This document shows, in pieces, positions 3,627 through 12,793 of a stretch of DNA of 33,492 bases. Source of the DNA: a virus (taxonomy: Duplodnaviria; Heunggongvirae; Uroviricota; Caudoviricetes); the IMG/VR virus record IMGVR_UViG_2660238642_000001; one strand, 5' to 3'. Numbering within the stretch: position 1 is the first letter of the stretch; the number at the start of each line of letters is the position of its first letter. The position numbers and the translations under genes were made by a program. The notes under the pieces are model-generated. The model was not told the DNA's origin and did no database searches. It saw nothing but the letters and a program-made list of their open reading frames with translations.

Positions 3627-5895
3627 AGCCTCCGGGCGTTTTGTCCCTCCGTCAGCATTTGCCGCAGGCACCGGTAAGACGTTTACCGGTGCTTATGCAT
3701 GGAACGCGCCACGCGAGGCTGTCGGGCGCGAAAGACCCCTTACACGTGACGAGATGCGTCAGGTGCAAGGTGTTTTATCCACGATTAACCGCCTGCCTTA
3801 TTTTTTGCGCTCGCTGTTTACTTCACGCTACGACTACATCCGGCGCACTAAAAGCCCGGTGCACGGGTTTTATTTCCTCACATCCACTTTTCAGCGTCGT
3901 TTATGGCCGCGCATTGAGCGCGTTAATCAGCGCCATGAAATGAACACCGACGCGTCGTTGCTGTTTCTGACAGAGCGTGACCATTATGCGCGTCTGCCGG
4001 GGATGAATGACAAGGAGCTGAAAAAGTTTGCCGCCCGTATTTCATCGCAGCTTTTCATGATGTATGAGGAACTCTGCGATGCATGGGTTGATGCACATGG
4101 CGAAAAAGAATCGCTGTTTACGGATGAGGCGCAGGCGCATCTGTATGGTCATGTTGCTGGCGCTGCACGTGCTTTCAATATTTCCCCGCTCTACTGGAAA
4201 AAATACCGTAAAGGACAGATGACCACGAGGCAGGCATATTCTGCCATTGCCCGTCTGTTTAATGATGAGTGGTGGACTCATCAGCTTAAAGGACAGCGTA
4301 TGCGCTGGCATGAAGCGTTACTGATAGCTGTCGGGGAGGTTAATAAAGACCGCTCACCTTATGCCAGTAAACACGCCATTCGTGATGTGCGTGCACGCCG
4401 CCAGGCAAATCTGGAATTTCTTAAATCGTGTGACCTTGAAAACAGGGAAACCGGCGAGCGCATCGACCTTATCAGTAAGGTGATGGGCAGTATTTCTAAT
4501 CCAGAAATTCGCCGGATGGAGCTGATGAACACCATCGCCGGTATTGAGCGTTACGCCGCCGCAGAGGGTGATGTGGGGATGTTTATCACGCTGACCGCAC
4601 CGTCAAAGTATCACCCGACACGTCAGGTCGGAAAAGGCGAAAGTAAAACCGTTCAGCTTAATCACGGCTGGAACGATGAGGCATTTAATCCAAAGGATGC
4701 GCAGCGTTATCTCTGCCGTATCTGGAGCCTGATGCGCACGGCATTCAAGGATAATGATTTACAGGCCTACGGTTTGCGTGTCGTCGAGCCACACCATGAC
4801 GGAACGCCACACTGGCATATGATGCTTTTTTGTAATCCACGCCAGCGTAACCAGATTATCGAAATCATGCGTCGCTATGCGCTCAAAGAGGATGGCGACG
4901 AAAGAGGTGCCGCGCGAAACCGTTTTCAGGCAAAACATCTTAATCGGGGCGGTGCTGCGGGGTATATCGCGAAATACATCTCAAAAAATATCGACGGCTA
5001 TGCACTGGATGGGCAGCTCGATAACGATACCGGCAGACCGCTGAAAGATACTGCCGCGGCTGTTACCGCATGGGCGTCAACGTGGCGCATTCCGCAATTT
5101 AAAACGGTTGGCCTGCCGACAATGGGGGCTTACCGTGAACTACGCAAATTGCCTCGCGGCGTCAGCATTGCTGATGAGTTTGACGAGCGCGTCGAGGCTG
5201 CACGCGCCGCCGCAGACAGTGGTGATTTTGCGTTGTATATCAGCGCGCAGGGTGGGGCAAATGTCCCGCGCGATTGTCAGACTGTCAGGGTCGCCCGTAG
5301 CCCGTCGGATGACGTTAACGAGTACGAGGAAGAAGTCGAGAGAGTGGTCGGCATTTACGCGCCGCATCTCGGCGCGCGTCATATTCATATCACCAGAACG
5401 ACGGACTGGCGCATTGTACCGAAAGTTCCGGTCGTTGAGCCTTTGACTTTAAAAAGCGGCATCGCCGCGCCTCGGAGTCCTGTCAATAACTGTGGAAAGC
5501 TCACCGGTGGTGATACTTCGTCACCGGCTCCCACGCCTTCTGAACACGCCTCAGCAGTGCTTAATCTGGTTGATGACGGTGTCATCGAATGGAGTGACCC
5601 GGAGGTCGTGAGGGCGCTCAGGGGGGCATTAAAACACGGACTGAGAAGACCAAACCGCCAGCAAAGAAACGGAAGCACGTTAAAACCACATGAAATTGCA
5701 CCATCGGCCAGACTGAGCCGGTCGGAACGATTGCAAATTACCCGTATCCGCGTTGACCTTGCTCAGAACGGTATCAGGCCGCAGCGATGGGAGCTTGAGG
5801 CGCTGGCGCGTGGGGCAACAGTAAATTATGACGGGAAAAAATTCATGTATCCGGTCGCTGACGAATGGCCGGGACTCTCAACATATTATCAATGA
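3616..5895 (+). CDS. A: Rolling-circle replication initiator (endonuclease) A
   Basis: ~760 aa from the ATG at 3616 (MAVKASGRF..., matching the P2 gpA N-terminus as recalled; the track ORF begins earlier at 3574). Contains the HUH motif EPHHDGTPHWHMMLF and paired catalytic tyrosines in GYIAKYISK. Confidence 0.9.
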   Translation: MAVKASGRFVPPSAFAAGTGKTFTGAYAWNAPREAVGRERPLTRDEMRQVQGVLSTINRLPYFLRSLFTSRYDYIRRTKSPVHGFYFLTSTFQRRLWPRIERVNQRHEMNTDASLLFLTERDHYARLPGMNDKELKKFAARISSQLFMMYEELCDAWVDAHGEKESLFTDEAQAHLYGHVAGAARAFNISPLYWKKYRKGQMTTRQAYSAIARLFNDEWWTHQLKGQRMRWHEALLIAVGEVNKDRSPYASKHAIRDVRARRQANLEFLKSCDLENRETGERIDLISKVMGSISNPEIRRMELMNTIAGIERYAAAEGDVGMFITLTAPSKYHPTRQVGKGESKTVQLNHGWNDEAFNPKDAQRYLCRIWSLMRTAFKDNDLQAYGLRVVEPHHDGTPHWHMMLFCNPRQRNQIIEIMRRYALKEDGDERGAARNRFQAKHLNRGGAAGYIAKYISKNIDGYALDGQLDNDTGRPLKDTAAAVTAWASTWRIPQFKTVGLPTMGAYRELRKLPRGVSIADEFDERVEAARAAADSGDFALYISAQGGANVPRDCQTVRVARSPSDDVNEYEEEVERVVGIYAPHLGARHIHITRTTDWRIVPKVPVVEPLTLKSGIAAPRSPVNNCGKLTGGDTSSPAPTPSEHASAVLNLVDDGVIEWSDPEVVRALRGALKHGLRRPNRQQRNGSTLKPHEIAPSARLSRSERLQITRIRVDLAQNGIRPQRWELEALARGATVNYDGKKFMYPVADEWPGLSTYYQ

Positions 5896-6308
5896 TGATT
5901 GACATGAATATACTACTGAGATTAATCAGATCATCGATTGATTCCAAGATTATAGTATGGAATGGGAACCGTAAACCGCTCTGAGAGTTGTATGCATATA
6001 TGCCTGAGGGCAAAGCTTAACGTGGTTATTTTGACCAACGTCAGCTACCTAAGAGTTATGGCTGGTCTTATGCTTCTGCATTCCCACAAGCATGTGATGT
6101 GTGGGAAAATGGAGCAGGGAAATCTAAGTTAAGTTGGATTCTAATGTAATTAAGATGCCTAAGTTTGCTTATCTTTCGCTGTGACGTGGAACTTTGTTAT
6201 GATACTGCATGCATAAACAGTTGTTTTCTGCTGTTTAAATTACCAGTGAGCACTTTTGCTTGCTAAGTATAGAATGTAGTCATTTTAAACATGTTGCAAG
6301 GTAGTATC

Positions 6309-7451
6309 ATGGCTGAAGAAGCAGGGCGCTTAACATTTTTTGATGTAACGAAAGCTGGTTTTTACAATCTTAAGGATGAAGTTCAAAAAAGCACGGATAT
6401 TGTAAATATATTAGACTCCCTGTCCAACTGGGTTTGTTCTCGTTCTTTTGAAGAAACCCTACCATTGGTTGATGACTCTAGACTGCGGAAAAAGGTTTAT
6501 TGTCGAGGTGTGCATAAAGATGAAAAGACAGGCGATTATTTTTTTGTGCTTTGGAAATCAGAACTTGATGGCAATGGTAATCTTCAGGGGGTTGCGCCAG
6601 ATTCACAGGTAAATTCATCATCTAGTGACGTTAAGATGCTTTCGGATGATATGACTGATGGGGTTAAATATATTTGGGGTAAGCCATGTTATTACTGGTA
6701 CATCCCTGAGTTCAATAAATTTGCTGCAATTCGTTTCCCTCACTCAAACTCAGACACTTATCTTTTTAGTCGCTATATTAGAGATTATGCTAATTTCAGA
6801 ATGCCATATCCCGGGCGTAAAATTGCAGAAGTATGCAGACCAAATCCAGGTGGGAAAGACATAAAGTTTAGTGTTGTTACATTTGAAAGTGATGACGGAA
6901 GTTCACGAGTAAGATTTTTATTTGAAGCGCAGCAGTATATGAAAAAAGCTGGGCGTATAAATATAAAGAAGATTCGTGACTCTATAACACATATTGTAAT
7001 AAGAGATACAATTGGAGCTAAAGTTCCAGATAAAAGAGCTTGGTGGGTAAAGGCTTTTGATAAATTTCCTGTATTACGTGATGAAGTACCTAAGACTCAT
7101 AAAGAACGACAGATAGAGTTAATTATTGAAGAAAGACCAACTGAAAAGCAAATTGACGAACTTTTCGATTTTTATGAAGAGGATTATGCTTTCGGCTCTT
7201 CTTGGAACAATATCGGCTTCAAACAGGATGGTAAGAATGGGCAGACTAAGTGGTTAGATGAATATGTTATGCGTGATTATTTGAATGCTACTTATACTGT
7301 AAATGATAACGCACATATCTCGGCTGAGAAATTGGCAGAGTTAATTAATGATAAACGAAAAGAACTCGTAAGTGGTCTCGATGGTTATGAGATTGATAAA
7401 ACTCAAGTTATACCTTCGGGAAATAACAATGAGGTCGCTATAGGAGGATGA
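6309..7451 (+). CDS. Hypothetical soluble protein, first gene of the island-1 two-gene operon (candidate defence protein)
   Basis: ~380-aa ORF in a clearly AT-rich island. The ATG at 6309 is preceded by AAGG; the track start is 6291. No Walker, RT, or nuclease motifs recognised. An Rx4H string (RDSITH) is present but not diagnostic. The stop is 1 nt from the start of the next gene. Confidence 0.6.
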   Translation: MAEEAGRLTFFDVTKAGFYNLKDEVQKSTDIVNILDSLSNWVCSRSFEETLPLVDDSRLRKKVYCRGVHKDEKTGDYFFVLWKSELDGNGNLQGVAPDSQVNSSSSDVKMLSDDMTDGVKYIWGKPCYYWYIPEFNKFAAIRFPHSNSDTYLFSRYIRDYANFRMPYPGRKIAEVCRPNPGGKDIKFSVVTFESDDGSSRVRFLFEAQQYMKKAGRINIKKIRDSITHIVIRDTIGAKVPDKRAWWVKAFDKFPVLRDEVPKTHKERQIELIIEERPTEKQIDELFDFYEEDYAFGSSWNNIGFKQDGKNGQTKWLDEYVMRDYLNATYTVNDNAHISAEKLAELINDKRKELVSGLDGYEIDKTQVIPSGNNNEVAIGG

Positions 7452-7452
7452 T

Positions 7453-7959
7453 GTGATAATAAAGATCCTTATTGGGATTCTCATGGCCTTCGTTCTGCTT
7501 GTTGGCGGTTTTAGCATTTCAGAAAGCGTCAAATATTCATATGTTGTTGATCTTCTTGGTGTTTTGCAAAATACGTCCGCGATGATTTTTGCAATTGCTG
7601 GTATTTGGCTAGCTTATCTCTATCCAAATGCAATCGCTGGTTTGATGAAATCTGAAAAAGTGGATTTTTTAGCAAGCAAAAGTGAAGCGAAGCGCATAGA
7701 AGGTATGATTCTTATTATCATTATGTCCGCTACTGTATTAATTTTTATTATTGCTTTTTACGCATTTAATGCTGTTCTCCGCGGTACGGATTTCTATGCG
7801 AACAATCGTCACCTTATTAAAGGTGTGAGTTGTGTATATATCTTGAGTATATTACTGACTCAACTGTCATGCGTTATTGTTCTTATTTGGAGAAATGTCT
7901 CGTTTATAAATAGGTTGTATACAGTAATAAACGAAAAAGAATTGGAGGAAAAGTTATAG
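7453..7959 (+). CDS. Small 4-TM integral membrane protein, translationally coupled partner
   Basis: GTG start 4 nt after AGGAGG (7443-7448) and 1 nt after the upstream stop. 168 aa with four hydrophobic stretches of ~20 residues (IIKILIGILMAFVLLVGGFSI, AMIFAIAGIWLAYLY, MILIIIMSATVLIFIIAFYAF, VSCVYILSILLTQLSCVIVLIW). Confidence 0.6.
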   Translation: MIIKILIGILMAFVLLVGGFSISESVKYSYVVDLLGVLQNTSAMIFAIAGIWLAYLYPNAIAGLMKSEKVDFLASKSEAKRIEGMILIIIMSATVLIFIIAFYAFNAVLRGTDFYANNRHLIKGVSCVYILSILLTQLSCVIVLIWRNVSFINRLYTVINEKELEEKL

Positions 7960-7991
7960 CGAACGGCATTTAATGCTGTTTTAATGATCTT

Positions 7992-8030
7992 AAGGGGTGT
8001 TTTTAATGCACCCCTTTCATGATTTTTTTT
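7992..8030 (+). terminator. Rho-independent terminator closing the island-1 two-gene operon
   Basis: Perfect 8-bp stem AAGGGGTG / CACCCCTT with a 9-nt loop, followed within 6 nt by a T8 run. Confidence 0.55.
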
Positions 8031-8076
8031 AGTGTTTGTTGTTTTTAATAAGAATTGTGAATTAACAGGAGAGGAT

Positions 8077-8808
8077 GTGATACACATAACAAAGCCAGGA
8101 ATTTTATTTAAGTATCGTAAGTTTGATAAAAACAATCTGAAGCTGTTATTGAATCGTGAGTTATGGTTTGCAAAACCAGATACTCTTAATGATCCTTTTG
8201 AAGCAAATTCTTCATTTTCAAATGTGCTTGATGCTGTTTGGAAACATTATCCACTGCCTCTTGATATGAGAATTAAATATGAGAGATATCTTAAACAGTC
8301 ATTGCAGCAAGTCGGAATTTGTTCCTTTAGTAAAGCGAGGAAAAATCAATTGATGTGGTCACATTATGCCGATGAACATAAAGGTATTTGCATTGGCTTT
8401 AAAGAGGAGTATTTGAAGAAAGCTGGGGTTTCTTTTTTGGAAGCAGATGTGGAATATCAGGATAATTATCCCTTTGATGATATTGTTAAACGTATTCATT
8501 ATTTTGAGGATAATGAATGCCTTAACGGGTTTGATAATATTTGCGGGGATATTTTACTTTCTATTTTAACGACAAAGTACACAAGTTGGAAATATGAAAG
8601 GGAGCGCCGATTGATTGTGGAGAATTTTGGAGCAAGGAAATTTGAACCTTTAGCGGTCAATTCTATAGCTTTTGGGTTAAGAATGAAGGAAAGAGATAAA
8701 AAAACGCTACTGACTCTATTGTCAGGCCCAGAGTGGTCGCATTTGAAATGGTTTCAATCAACGAAATCATCAATTAAATACTCTTTAGATTTCATACGTA
8801 TTAAATAG
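8077..8808 (+). CDS. DUF2971-like protein (unknown function)
   Basis: LWFAKPDTLNDPFE and MWSHYADEHKGICIGF match my recollection of the DUF2971 signature. The track ORF starts at GTG 8032, but a GTG at 8077 preceded by AGGAGAGG and lying downstream of the terminator is the more likely start. Confidence 0.55.
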   Translation: MIHITKPGILFKYRKFDKNNLKLLLNRELWFAKPDTLNDPFEANSSFSNVLDAVWKHYPLPLDMRIKYERYLKQSLQQVGICSFSKARKNQLMWSHYADEHKGICIGFKEEYLKKAGVSFLEADVEYQDNYPFDDIVKRIHYFEDNECLNGFDNICGDILLSILTTKYTSWKYERERRLIVENFGARKFEPLAVNSIAFGLRMKERDKKTLLTLLSGPEWSHLKWFQSTKSSIKYSLDFIRIK

Positions 8809-9211
8809 CTTTCAAATAGTTACGGTGGTTGTCATGTTATCGTCCCTCTTAACTGTCAGATCTGATTGAATACTGGATATGTAACCTATCAGTTGGTGTC
8901 TGAGTTAATACAACTGAAAGTATCAAACTGATGGCTTTTGTTCACAGTCGGCAGCAGATAATGAAGCACGAAAATCTGATGCTTGATGCGTTGGTTGGAG
9001 GGCAATTAGTCCGGGAGAATTACGGGTTGCTTAACGATATCAGTCCATCCAGAATGGCTCCGTCATCACACAGATGATAGAGAACGCCGCTAGCCGTGAA
9101 ACTTGTTTCTAGTGTTAGCGGGGGGGAACAATGAGTGCAGCGATGCGTTAGACTTATTTGTGTATTATGGCTTAATCTCGGATAGAGTTTGTTATCTGGA
9201 GAATAGGTTAT

Positions 9212-9631
9212 ATGGTGACGCTTGATACTGTGTATTGGAAGTTTGGTTATGCATCGGAAGCTGCCCAATTATTGGAGACTGAATTAATAAATGCCCTCAC
9301 TGAGTATGATATGAAGCAAGGGGGGGATATAGCGTCGTTGAAAAAACAGTTTCTAGAAATGGATAAGTACACGCTGGGTAAACTGAATTACGCACTGAAG
9401 TCAAGGATGGTGGGGGATGCTGATACACTGGAGCATGTGTCAGATGCTCTTAAAGCCAGAAACTACTTGGCACATGAGTTTTATCGCAAACATGCTGATG
9501 GTAAATTCACTCCAGAAGGAAGGCAGAGAATGCTTGCTGACTTAAAAAATATACATCAAATAATTTTTGAGGCTTACCGCAAGGTTCTGCAACTAAGTGA
9601 CATTGATATTCCTCCTTTAGAGCATGATTAA
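9212..9631 (+). CDS. Small alpha-helical HEPN-like protein (putative RNase or toxin)
   Basis: 139 aa, charged and helix-prone, with ARNYLAHEFY (R83-x4-H88-x2-Y91) resembling the HEPN Rx4-6H motif. Stand-alone gene at the distal end of the island. Confidence 0.45.
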   Translation: MVTLDTVYWKFGYASEAAQLLETELINALTEYDMKQGGDIASLKKQFLEMDKYTLGKLNYALKSRMVGDADTLEHVSDALKARNYLAHEFYRKHADGKFTPEGRQRMLADLKNIHQIIFEAYRKVLQLSDIDIPPLEHD

Positions 9632-9633
9632 AT

Positions 9634-9673
9634 CTTGCATGCATTAGATGCATTAGATGCATTAGTTTGCATG
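9634..9673. repeat. Tandem 9-bp repeat GCATTAGAT (about 2.8 copies) bracketed by TTGCATGC direct repeats
   Basis: Directly visible: ttGCATGCATTAGATGCATTAGATGCATTAGtttGCATGC immediately after the stop of the HEPN-like gene. Confidence 0.6.
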
Positions 9674-9768
9674 CCTCATTCGTTATTTTCATATTCGAGT
9701 GCCGTCAGTGTCGGCATGGTTTTGACGGATTCATACATCTGCATTAAAACCGCCCCATGAAGCGGGCG

Positions 9769-9787
9769 GGCGAGGCGGGGAAAGCAC
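9769..9787. other. cos site (19-nt cohesive-end sequence of P2)
   Basis: GGCGAGGCGGGGAAAGCAC matches the P2 cohesive end as I recall it. It lies between the accessory island and the portal gene Q, the position expected for a linearly integrated P2-type genome. Confidence 0.65.
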
Positions 9788-9956
9788 TGCGCGCTGGCGG
9801 TGGTGCTGATTTTATTTTTTCAGCGTCTGAGCGCGTCGTGATGGCGTTTAGATTGTGCGCCGGGGCGTTGGTGTGTCTGCGGGGTGTTTTGTGCGGTGGT
9901 GAGCGTGTGAGGGCGTGATGACGGGATGTAAAAAAGCCGCCCGCAGGCGGCGATGT

Positions 9957-10991
9957 TCAGCCGTTGTCAGTGTCCAGTGAGTAGTTTTTAAAGCGGATGA
10001 CCTCCTGACCGAGCCAGCCGTTTATCTCGCGGATCCTGTCCTGTAGCGGGATAAGCTCATTGCGGACAAAGACCTTAGCCACTTTCTCAATATCACCCAG
10101 CGACCCGACGTTCTCCGGCTTGCCGCCCATCAACTGAAAGGGGATGCGGTGCGCGTCCAGCAGGTCAGCGGCGCTGGCTTTTTTGATATTAAAAAAATCG
10201 TCCTTCGTCGCCACTTCACTGAGCGGGATAATTTTAATGCCGTCGGCTTTTCCCTGTGGGGCATAGAGAAACAGGTTTTTAAAGTTGTTGCGGCCTTTCG
10301 ACTTCACCATGTTTTCGCGAAGCATTTCGATATCGTTGCGATCCTGCACGGCATCGGTGACGTACATGATGTATCCGGCATGTGCGCCGTTTTCGTAATA
10401 CTTGCGGCGGAACAGCGTGGCCGACTCATTCAGCCAGGCAGAGTTAAGGCCGCTGAGATATTCCGGCAGGCCGTACAGCTCCTGATTAATATCCGGCTCC
10501 AGCAGATGAAACACGGAGCCGGGCGCGAAAGGTGCCGGCTCGTTGAAGGACGGCACCCACCAGTAAACATCCTCCTCCACGCCACGGCGGGTATATTTTG
10601 CCGGTGAGGTTTCCAGTCTGATGACCTTACCGGTAGTGCTGTAACGCTTTTCCAGAAACGCATTACCGAACACCAGAAAATCCAGCACAAAGCGGCTGAA
10701 ATCCTGCTGGGAAAGCCACGGGTGCGGGATAAACGTTGAAGCCAGAATATTACGTTTGACGTAAATCGGTGAGCTGTGATGCACGGCAGCACGCAGGCTT
10801 TTTGCCAGACCGGTAAAGCTGACCGGGGGTTCATACCATCTGCCGTTACTGATACATTCGACATAATCCAGAATGTCACGGCGGTCGAGTACCGGCACCG
10901 GATCACCAAAGGTGAATGCCTCCATTTTCGGGGCGCTGGCGGTCATTTTTTTTGCCGCAGGTTGCGGTGTTTTCCCTTTTTTCTTGCTCAT
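9957..10991 (-). CDS. Q: Portal (capsid vertex) protein
   Basis: 344 aa, the P2 gpQ length. First gene leftward of cos and followed by the large terminase gene, as in P2. Confidence 0.9.
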   Translation of the reverse strand: MSKKKGKTPQPAAKKMTASAPKMEAFTFGDPVPVLDRRDILDYVECISNGRWYEPPVSFTGLAKSLRAAVHHSSPIYVKRNILASTFIPHPWLSQQDFSRFVLDFLVFGNAFLEKRYSTTGKVIRLETSPAKYTRRGVEEDVYWWVPSFNEPAPFAPGSVFHLLEPDINQELYGLPEYLSGLNSAWLNESATLFRRKYYENGAHAGYIMYVTDAVQDRNDIEMLRENMVKSKGRNNFKNLFLYAPQGKADGIKIIPLSEVATKDDFFNIKKASAADLLDAHRIPFQLMGGKPENVGSLGDIEKVAKVFVRNELIPLQDRIREINGWLGQEVIRFKNYSLDTDNG

Positions 10992-12763
10992 CAGTAAAAC
11001 TCCAGAATGGTGGATGTCAGCGGAGTGCTGATACCGGCGGTGAGTGGCTCATTTAACAGAGCGTGCATGGTCGCCCAGGCGAGGTCGGCGTGGCTGGCTT
11101 CCTCGCTGCGGCTGGCCTCATAGGTGGCGCTGCGTCCGCTGCTGGTCATGGTCTTGCGGATAGCCATAAACGAGCTGGTGATGTCGGTGGCGCTGACGTC
11201 ATATTCCAGACAGCCACGGCGGATGACGTCTTTTGCCTTGAGCACCATTGCGGTTTTCATTTCCGGCGTGTAGCGGATGTCGCGCGCGGCGGGATAGAAC
11301 GAGCGCACGAGCTGGAACACGCCGACACCAAGGCCGGTGGCATCAATACCGATGTATTCGACGTTGTATTTTTCGGTGAGTTTGCGGATGGATTCAGCCT
11401 GGGTGGCAAAGTCCATGCCTTTCCACTGGTGACGCTCAAGTATCCTGAATTTGCCACCGGCCACCACCGGCGGTGCCAGCACCACGCATCCGGCGCTGTC
11501 GCCACGGTGTGACGGGTCGTAACCAATCCATACCGGGCGGGAGCCGAACGGATTTGCGGCAAACGGCGCGTAGTCTTCCCATTCTTCCAGAGTGTCGACC
11601 ATGCAGCGTTGCAGCTCCTCGAACGGGAACACCGACGCCTTGTCGTCAACAAATTCACACATGAACAGGTTTTTAAAATCGTCGGCGCTGTTTTCGCGTT
11701 TGAGCTGCTCAATGTCGAACAGCGTGCAGCCGCCTTTCAGCGCGTCCTCAATGGTGACAATCTGCCGCCACTGGCCGTCCGCACAGAGAAGACCTCCGGC
11801 AAGGGCGTTATGACTGACGTCGATTTCCACGCGTTCGGCGGCGCTGGCGCGTCCCCGGTTGAACAGTTCACCCGACCAGAACGGGTAGGCGTCGTGCGCC
11901 AGCGTGGACGGGGTGGAGAAATAGGTCGAGCGCAGGTGGCTCTGTGAGGCCATACCTGATGCCACCTTACGCAGTACCTGAAAATTCGGGATCCAGAAAA
12001 TCTCGTCGACGTACAGGTCGCCGTTATGGCTCTGCGCGGTGTTGGAGTTGGTGCCGAGAAAAATCAGTTTTGCGCCGTTATTGCCCAGGACAATCGGGTC
12101 ACCGGTCAGGTCAACGTCAACCAGACGGGCAAAGGCGATGATGTATTCGCGGAACACATACGCCTGCGTTTTACTGGCCGACAGAAAAATCTGGTTATGA
12201 CCGGTTTTCAGGGCGCGCAGCAGCGCCTCGCGGGAAAAATAAAACGTTGCGCCAATCTGGCGGGATTTCAGGATATCGCGGATGCGGTGCTCAAGCCCGG
12301 CGCGATACCAGTGCAACTGATAGTCGAAAGACTGCTCAAAGAAAATCTGCTCCAGCTTTTCGATGGCCTCGTCACTGAAAAAATTCTTTTTCGGTTTGCG
12401 CCGCCCGCCTTTGTTGCGGTTAGCGACGTTCGGATTAAGGTCTGCCTCGTTGCCGGTCTGACTGTAACGGTTGACCCGTGCCAGTCGTTCAATCTGACGT
12501 CCCAGCAGGTCAATTTCCTTGAAGTCACCGCCGGTTTTCTGCGGTTTGATGATGAGCTGGGTCAGCCGCGCTTCCAGACTCATTTCGACACGGCTGATGG
12601 GGGCAACGCTGTCCCAGCCGTCGCGCTGTTTCCAGCTCTGCACCGTCGGGCGTTTCATCTGCAACATGGCGGCAATCTGCGGCACGGAAAACCCCTGCCA
12701 GTACAGCAGCGCCGCCTGACGACGCGGGTCGTGTAAAAGAGTGGTGTCTGTGGTGATGGTCAT
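10991..12763 (-). CDS. P: Terminase large subunit (ATPase)
   Basis: 590 aa from the ATG at 12763, which is preceded by GAGGT; the track extends to a TTG at 12793. Same length as P2 gpP and coupled to Q. Confidence 0.9.
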   Translation of the reverse strand: MTITTDTTLLHDPRRQAALLYWQGFSVPQIAAMLQMKRPTVQSWKQRDGWDSVAPISRVEMSLEARLTQLIIKPQKTGGDFKEIDLLGRQIERLARVNRYSQTGNEADLNPNVANRNKGGRRKPKKNFFSDEAIEKLEQIFFEQSFDYQLHWYRAGLEHRIRDILKSRQIGATFYFSREALLRALKTGHNQIFLSASKTQAYVFREYIIAFARLVDVDLTGDPIVLGNNGAKLIFLGTNSNTAQSHNGDLYVDEIFWIPNFQVLRKVASGMASQSHLRSTYFSTPSTLAHDAYPFWSGELFNRGRASAAERVEIDVSHNALAGGLLCADGQWRQIVTIEDALKGGCTLFDIEQLKRENSADDFKNLFMCEFVDDKASVFPFEELQRCMVDTLEEWEDYAPFAANPFGSRPVWIGYDPSHRGDSAGCVVLAPPVVAGGKFRILERHQWKGMDFATQAESIRKLTEKYNVEYIGIDATGLGVGVFQLVRSFYPAARDIRYTPEMKTAMVLKAKDVIRRGCLEYDVSATDITSSFMAIRKTMTSSGRSATYEASRSEEASHADLAWATMHALLNEPLTAGISTPLTSTILEFY

Positions 12764-12793
12764 GAATACCTCGCCGTGATGAATACACGGCAA

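Follow-up and report, generated by a model that had tools for sequence, protein, structure and literature searches.

What does the last gene before the cohesive-end site (cos) of a P2-like prophage encode, and how could a putative RNase be kept there with no antitoxin gene beside it? These questions are raised by IMG/VR virus record IMGVR_UViG_2660238642_000001, whose whole length of 33,492 nucleotides is referred to here as the window, and by an open reading frame (ORF) in it that runs on the plus strand from an ATG at 9212 to 9631. The gene resides in a P2-like (Peduoviridae) Escherichia coli prophage and encodes a protein of 139 amino acids (aa). A preliminary description made from the letters alone had presented the product as a small HEPN-like protein at the island edge by cos; the length, start codon and coordinates that it gave are confirmed, and the gene is indeed the last one before cos. 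We propose, with a probability of roughly 0.5, that the protein is a stand-alone, latent HEPN RNase for phage exclusion, carried as cargo of the cos-proximal P2 hotspot and resembling the recently described HepS in the way it would work. The two features at the centre of this proposal are:

9212..9631, plus strand: gene of the 139-aa HEPN-like protein (WP_001576649; homologue of PSP3 gp38; phrog_12893)
9458..9481, plus strand: codons of the RNxLxHxF signature R83-N-Y-L-A-H88-E-F90, a putative HEPN catalytic motif in the C-terminal third of helix 70–93

The ORF is real, conserved and under purifying selection. The protein is 100% identical across 18 complete E. coli genomes, and window positions 6000–9950, which are 100% identical to E. 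coli LS4, are present near-complete in 18 of the 5,426 complete E. coli genomes. Within the searched collection, a single phage genome encodes it, that of Salmonella phage PSP3, whose gp38 shares 76% identity with the 139-aa protein and is likewise encoded by the final gene ahead of cos. Between six enterobacterial lineages, the ratio of nonsynonymous to synonymous substitution rates (dN/dS) of the gp38-like gene is ~0.06–0.24. The 139-aa protein itself has no match in Pfam, NCBIfam or PADLOC (for PADLOC, none at E ≤ 1), and its sole label is phrog_12893, of 'unknown function'.

The HEPN-like reading began with R83-N-Y-L-A-H88-E-F-Y91, and the translation of nucleotides 9458–9484 has these residues exactly where they had been placed. 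By itself the motif proves nothing, because a bare Rx4-6H arises in 47% of shuffles of the 139-aa protein; the narrower RNxxxH arises in 0.5%. Judged from the alignments, it is the conservation of the motif, rather than its presence, that exceeds chance. Among 25 homologues, down to 34% identity, R83, N84, L86, H88 and F90 are invariant, together with K10, G12, E16-AAQLLE22, E24, L25, T54, A79, H94, G103, M107, L111, H115 and A121. Among 62 representatives, down to 25% identity, G12, E22 and G103 remain invariant, and Q19, T54, G56, A79, R83, N84, L86, H88, F90, H94, M107 and L111 are conserved at 90% or above. The motif is kept in close homologues. Family-wide, it is carried by 276 of 304 proteins, the remainder being mostly fragments. 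These 276 have Asn at R+1 in 267 cases, one of the polar residues (N/H/D) that typically follow the arginine of the conserved HEPN Rx4-6H motif, Leu at R+3 in 263, and Phe at H+2 in 257 (93%), with Tyr in 6. A few full-length members have His replaced by Gln or have lost the Arg, and RNxLxHxF is retained in ~95% of full-length relatives. We write the family motif as RNxLxHxF because the conserved aromatic residue is F90 (H+2), not Y91, and the earlier stress on Y91 is abandoned here.

The AlphaFold2 (AF2) model of the protein is all-helical, as had been predicted, with a mean predicted local distance difference test score (pLDDT) of 93.2 and a predicted template modelling score (pTM) of 0.85, and its five helices comprise residues 4–35, 40–50, 55–64, 70–93 and 101–127. 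By the published definition (PMC3710099), a HEPN domain is an up-down bundle of four helices, often with inserts between the second and the third; its Rx4-6H motif begins as helix 3 closes and extends into the loop that leads to helix 4, and a conserved acidic residue of an N-terminal helix is nearby. In the model, E22, which is invariant, sits on the long first helix; the conserved T54-x-G56 kink has a short helix on either side; and R83–H88 lie in the last third of helix 70–93, which is followed by a loop and then by helix 101–127. At the level of secondary structure, the model is compatible with the published definition.

Several weak similarities converge on the same superfamily. When the family consensus was compared with 24,736 Pfam models, the two best matches were HEPN_Apea (E 1.2e-3) and DUF4145 (E 3.5e-3), both of the HEPN clan and both spanning the motif segment. 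Scanned singly, 62 members gave 17 weak matches to six HEPN-clan Pfam families, namely HEPN_Apea, DUF4145, RiboL-PSP, Cthe2314, LA2681 and MAE_28990. The weak PADLOC matches of the family are mostly to HEPN-bearing models (Cas13-ApeA, Cas13a/b and Csx1/Csm6), and one member, A0A4R5PQ46, is named in UniProt 'MAE-28990/MAE-18760-like HEPN domain-containing protein'. No single one of these tests is significant; taken together, the sub-threshold matches make HEPN the best-supported superfamily, and we consider it probable that the 139-aa protein is a genuine, divergent HEPN domain. The preliminary HEPN-like reading is in this way partly supported. One 331-aa member (P0161) is a head-to-tail duplication of the domain with RNxLAHH in both halves. 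A two-domain working unit is usual for HEPN enzymes, and the duplication hints at such a unit in this family. Another member (P0071) is apparently fused to a degenerate HepT-like domain (PF01934, E 1.5e-5); we give it little weight, as it is known from one metagenomic sequence and the motif is absent from its C-terminal half.

The family is large and so far unannotated, and is not covered by models in Pfam, NCBIfam or PADLOC. When 1.84 billion representatives of clusters formed at 50% identity were searched with a family profile, 1,894 proteins matched at E ≤ 1e-3, of which 615 reached E ≤ 1e-10; almost all are 140–190 aa long. Matches in genomes come from Acidobacteriota, Proteobacteria, Planctomycetota, Gemmatimonadota, Nitrospirota, Cyanobacteria and others. 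In 75 diverse loci, ORFs were called and all proteins within 3.5 kb were clustered (all-vs-all BLAST, phmmer). No conserved protein partner emerged, as no neighbour family was found in more than 3–4 of the loci, and where one recurred this reflected local synteny only. A Pfam scan of 148 flanking proteins gave housekeeping, mobile-element and a few defence genes, and of the families that occurred at least twice among them, none was the MNT family PF01909; an MNT gene was also absent from the enterobacterial loci examined. Thus there is neither an MNT gene nor any other conserved protein partner, and the earlier remark that no such gene is visible now extends beyond the window. The flanks include genes for serine hydroxymethyltransferase, a tRNA synthetase and SmpB. 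Those of distant members also hold two Hypoth_Ymh and two DUF4145 proteins (both HEPN families), McrBC, a Tn3 transposase and integrases, from which we take it that some copies of the family lie in defence or mobile contexts. Tandem paralogues occur in a few loci (L026, L033, L051 and L068).

Which known system does the protein resemble most? The preliminary description had compared it with HepT, in which the Tyr of an RX4HXY motif is polyadenylylated by MntA, the product of an adjacent MNT antitoxin gene (PF01909, GSX10DXD) (PMC7641770). The 139-aa protein shares with HepT/MntA, a class I HEPN/MNT toxin-antitoxin system, a HEPN domain size of ~130–140 aa, an Rx4H motif and an aromatic residue at H+2. 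Unlike HepT, however, it has no PF01934 or PF08780 match, and we reject the HepT/MntA identity, and with it the earlier comparison, on account of Phe instead of Tyr at H+2 and of the lack of an MNT neighbour in any locus. With the ApeA-like, DUF4145 and MAE_28990/RiboL-PSP families it shares the RN-type motif, the Glu in the N-terminal helix and the association with defence (PMC3710099), and HEPN_Apea and HEPN_MAE_28990 proteins are found in P2 and P4 hotspots; in contrast to the ApeA-like, DUF4145 and MAE_28990/RiboL-PSP proteins, which are usually larger, fused or placed in restriction-modification operons, the present family is a bare domain of ~140–160 aa.

The closest parallel in working is HepS ('HEPN Solo') of the Gifsy-1 prophage of S. 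Typhimurium, a single HEPN protein with no conserved partner (PMC13043305; PDB 9OIJ/9OIK), with which this kind of solo HEPN prophage anti-phage protein was first characterised in 2026. HepS is made constitutively as an inactive tetramer, is opened by a siphovirus tail-tip protein and then cleaves tRNA anticodon loops (PMC13043305). Like HepS, which is tolerated by its host, the 139-aa protein is prophage-borne in an accessory-gene slot, consists of one small HEPN-type domain bearing an R-N-x3-H motif, and lacks a conserved partner or antitoxin. Unlike the similarity in setting, relatedness to HepS was not detected: 9OIJ was retrieved neither by sequence nor by fold, the comparison being made through the PDB entry and not the HepS sequence, and the Gifsy-1 (LT2) record holds no protein with R100/H105.

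By analogy, we propose RNase activity, oligomerisation, latency, a trigger and a defence phenotype for the 139-aa protein as follows. It would be made in the lysogen from its own weak promoter and would assemble into a homo-oligomer of two or more subunits. There, two RNxLxH motifs would build a composite, metal-independent RNase site from R83 and H88, probably helped by E22 and H94. The oligomer would stay latent, and for this reason no antitoxin would be needed. A component of a superinfecting phage would then switch the protein on, leading to the cutting of tRNA or mRNA and to abortion of the infection.

Several observations weigh against this proposal. First, the score of the family consensus against HEPN_Apea is 19.7 bits, below the gathering threshold of 24.4, and no HEPN similarity reached a curated cut-off for the family in the Pfam and NCBIfam scans. 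Second, comparison by hhalign of the family with a Pfam-verified MAE_28990/RiboL-PSP alignment (PF18737/PF18735) aligned the RN..H segments with P = 0.13; the family profiles found no HEPN chain among the PDB sequences, only chance matches; and Foldseek searches of PDB and BFVD gave nothing below E = 0.07, which is uninformative. Third, many distant members sit beside housekeeping genes and not in obvious defence islands, and the family is rare on plasmids (6 matches in 72,556 records). Fourth, a consensus promoter scan returned nothing upstream of the 139-aa gene, and the promoter that we read there by eye matches the consensus weakly.

The rival that survives best is that the protein is a helical bundle without nuclease activity, in which the conserved R/N/H/E residues form a binding or structural site; its role might be to regulate, to bind RNA or protein as an adaptor, or to serve the phage as an accessory factor. 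Proteins with a non-catalytic HEPN fold are known, MtlR and sacsin being examples. RNxLxHxF with an invariant Glu is, however, the pattern of catalytic HEPN proteins, and the family keeps it across a wide phylogeny; the weak matches in three libraries are all to catalytic HEPN families, unlike what chance resemblance would give, and the position in a defence hotspot also speaks against this rival. We regard the non-nuclease explanation as unlikely, though one to be taken seriously.

How far the position can inform function depends on the setting of the gene. Around the locus, the other genes are, in order:

ends at 5895: gene of the replication endonuclease gpA
6291–7451: PDC-M18A gene (386 aa; PADLOC E 1e-40)
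7453–7959: PDC-M18B gene, encoding a membrane protein (168 aa; PADLOC E 1e-19)
8032–8808: DUF2971/PDC-S31 gene (258 aa; PADLOC E 5e-47)
9957–10991, minus strand: portal gene gpQ
10991–12793, minus strand: terminase gene

PDC-M18A, PDC-M18B and PDC-S31 are PADLOC models of phage defence candidates, none of them experimentally characterised to our knowledge. A gap of 404 bp separates the DUF2971 gene from the 139-aa ORF, beyond which lies cos. The interval from gpA to cos/gpQ has been published as the anti-phage hotspot of P2 (Rousset et al. 2022, PMC9122126), and WP_001576649 itself is listed as 'hypothetical' in the supplement of that study, in one hotspot arrangement of four genes (hypothetical + DUF2971 + hypothetical + hypothetical). 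The 'Putative HEPN' of pFR103, from the P2 locus of E. coli S88 and among the additional tested systems there (PMC9122126), is a different protein.

The gp38-like gene behaves as cargo. It is found in 30 of 5,426 complete E. coli genomes, the cos-proximal region being matched in 2,156; its G+C content is 41–43%, against 52–58% for the backbone and 31–38% for the neighbouring cargo; and its upstream neighbours vary from lineage to lineage. Like old/tin of P2 and other cargo between gpA and cos (PMC9122126), it is one of the variable, horizontally acquired, low-GC genes of the same locus; its product is unrelated to theirs. Its distance from the portal stop codon, ~325 bp, is very constant. The exception is a Citrobacter-type prophage contig (L096, 5677–7220) with two extra genes between the gp38-like and portal genes, phrog_13337 (273 aa) and phrog_8999 (239 aa), and this insertion means that cargo can enter on the cos side too. 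The simplest reading is that the gp38-like gene has been in the hotspot for longer, with more recent cargo going in on its gpA side. In an E. coli prophage of the W13-16 lineage (L002, NZ_CP080235, 2319–4986), IS3 interrupts the upstream neighbour of the gp38 homologue, an HNH_2 gene (phrog_20585) that is left as two ORFs, and a related HNH protein is encoded downstream of a distant family member (L036).

Downstream, the gene is followed by two features of the packaging region:

9639..9665, plus strand: perfect tandem repeat of the 9-bp unit ATGCATTAG, three copies (Tandem Repeats Finder), directly 3' of the stop codon
9769..9787, plus strand: cos cohesive-end sequence GGCGAGGCGGGGAAAGCAC, 19 nt, of P2 type (exact match, none expected by chance)

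The cos site is the right border of the cargo hotspot; the linear PSP3 record ends immediately before the position aligned with it, and PSP3 cos is annotated at bases 1–19. Other lineages have two copies of ATGCATTAG and share an invariant GCATTAG-TGCAT-TGCATG block. Within 9632–9768, the repeat is part of a TGCAT-rich block, after which comes CTGCATTAAAACCG-CCCAT-AAGCGGGC; all six lineages conserve both as far as the site of the cos cut. The repeat and the conserved block probably belong to the packaging region and not to the gene, as terminase recognition elements.

Upstream, the region had been taken as non-coding and as a possible source of an RNA or small-peptide partner. An Rfam scan of 8700–10000 gave no match. 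The region does, however, contain a conserved small ORF, and three features precede the 139-aa gene:

8931..9077, plus strand: gp37-like small ORF of 48 aa (homologue of PSP3 gp37; phrog_11386)
9085..9123, plus strand: conserved hairpin with no U-tract, directly 3' of the gp37-like stop codon
9135..9211, plus strand: conserved 5' region of the gp38-like gene, homology to the gp37-less W13-16 type beginning at 9135

The small ORF shares 52% identity with residues 13–68 of PSP3 gp37 (tblastn) and matches phrog_11386 with E 1e-9. Genes of this kind, encoding 69–79 aa, precede the gp38-like gene by 131–134 bp in PSP3 and in prophages of Salmonella, Citrobacter and Klebsiella. Homology to gp37 starts at 8913, and the window copy is N-terminally truncated relative to these forms: its first 12–18 codons were lost at the junction with the upstream cargo, it starts at a conserved internal Met, and it is without a clear ribosome-binding site. 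The dN/dS of the gp37-like gene is 0.09–0.17 between lineages and 0.13–0.23 against the window copy (five lineages in all). A single-sequence AF2 model (pLDDT 77) has one long helix, residues 2–37, and then a disordered, Pro-rich tail.

The hairpin has a stem of ~18 bp, two pairs of which show compensatory changes (RNAalifold, five lineages), and the window copy folds with −18.1 kcal/mol (z = −2.2); it may terminate transcription, stabilise RNA or be a palindrome bound by a protein. As homology to the W13-16 type begins at 9135, the gp38-like gene travels with ~77 bp of 5' region of its own. This region holds, as read by eye, promoter-like TAGACT (9149–9154) and CTTAAT (9171–9176) separated by a 16-nt spacer, and a Shine-Dalgarno GGAG at 9198–9201; GCGTTAGA and other columns of it are invariant in six lineages.

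A second rival arises from this neighbourhood, namely that gp37 and gp38 form a two-gene module in which the gp37-like protein is an antitoxin, inhibitor or self-immunity factor of the HEPN-like protein, the pair acting as a toxin-antitoxin or 'toxin plus phage-escape' unit. The two genes are adjacent, in the same order and ~131–134 bp apart in PSP3, in Salmonella, Citrobacter and Klebsiella and in the window prophage, the gp37-like gene accompanying the gp38-like gene in five of the six enterobacterial lineages; both are under purifying selection; and the charges of the products are complementary, with an isoelectric point (pI) of 8.4–9.7 for the basic gp37-like and 5.7 for the acidic gp38-like protein. 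A helix plus a disordered tail resembles, moreover, the shape of many small antitoxins. It is possible that the gp37-like protein is a partner or regulator of the gp38-like protein. The pairing is not obligatory, however: the gp37-like gene is missing from all 75 distant loci and from the 12 complete genomes of the E. coli W13-16 lineage, whose gp38-like gene is intact and constrained. The truncation and the lack of a clear ribosome-binding site in the window copy also count against a working pair, and the hairpin and promoter-like region between the genes are unlike the tight operons of type II toxin-antitoxin systems. We find the two-gene module rather improbable; the conserved ORF does come near to the earlier alternative of a small-peptide partner. 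For the stand-alone RNase proposed here, the lack of an antitoxin in most loci and the persistence of an intact gene without gp37 fit latency better than a classical toxin.

A bolder combination of these elements can be imagined, a new kind of cos-linked module of the gp37-like and gp38-like genes in which the lysogen is guarded by a solo HEPN RNase that has no relation to HepS, the single-helix gp37-like protein is a prophage escape or immunity factor read through from the early operon on induction, and the ~1,900-cluster family represents widespread, partner-less, trigger-gated RNases outside the defence databases. We hold it to be a long shot; were it true, a P2-like phage would be spared its own nuclease. 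Finally, that the 139-aa protein is an accessory part or effector of the upstream PDC-M18A/B or DUF2971 PDC-S31 systems is highly improbable: the identical E. coli protein always occurs with the same three upstream genes (26 contigs with one arrangement; 18 complete genomes) and the four genes appear as one arrangement in Rousset et al., but homologues at 61–81% identity are cos-proximal behind other genes (DinI + phrog_3403, DUF7415, the IS-disrupted HNH gene or nothing recognisable), the 404-bp gap and a GC step set it apart from the DUF2971 gene, and no PADLOC model matches it whereas M18A, M18B and S31 are matched strongly by the upstream proteins.

The family is new and unannotated, and the idea of solo HEPN cargo in prophages has already been anticipated by the HepS and P2 hotspot literature. 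The 139-aa gene is a good and cheap candidate for experiments, and the gp37-like mini-protein offers a simple handle on prophage self-escape. If the proposed stand-alone, latent RNase is correct, the stand-alone HEPN defence nucleases would have a second lineage, not detectably related to HepS and comprising ~1,900 clusters across many phyla that are unrecognised by Pfam, NCBIfam, PADLOC and PHROG annotation. The catalogue of the P2 hotspot, in which the 139-aa protein is now only 'hypothetical', would gain a single-gene system open to testing, and the question would arise of how a partner-less RNase stays silent in its host and what switches it on.
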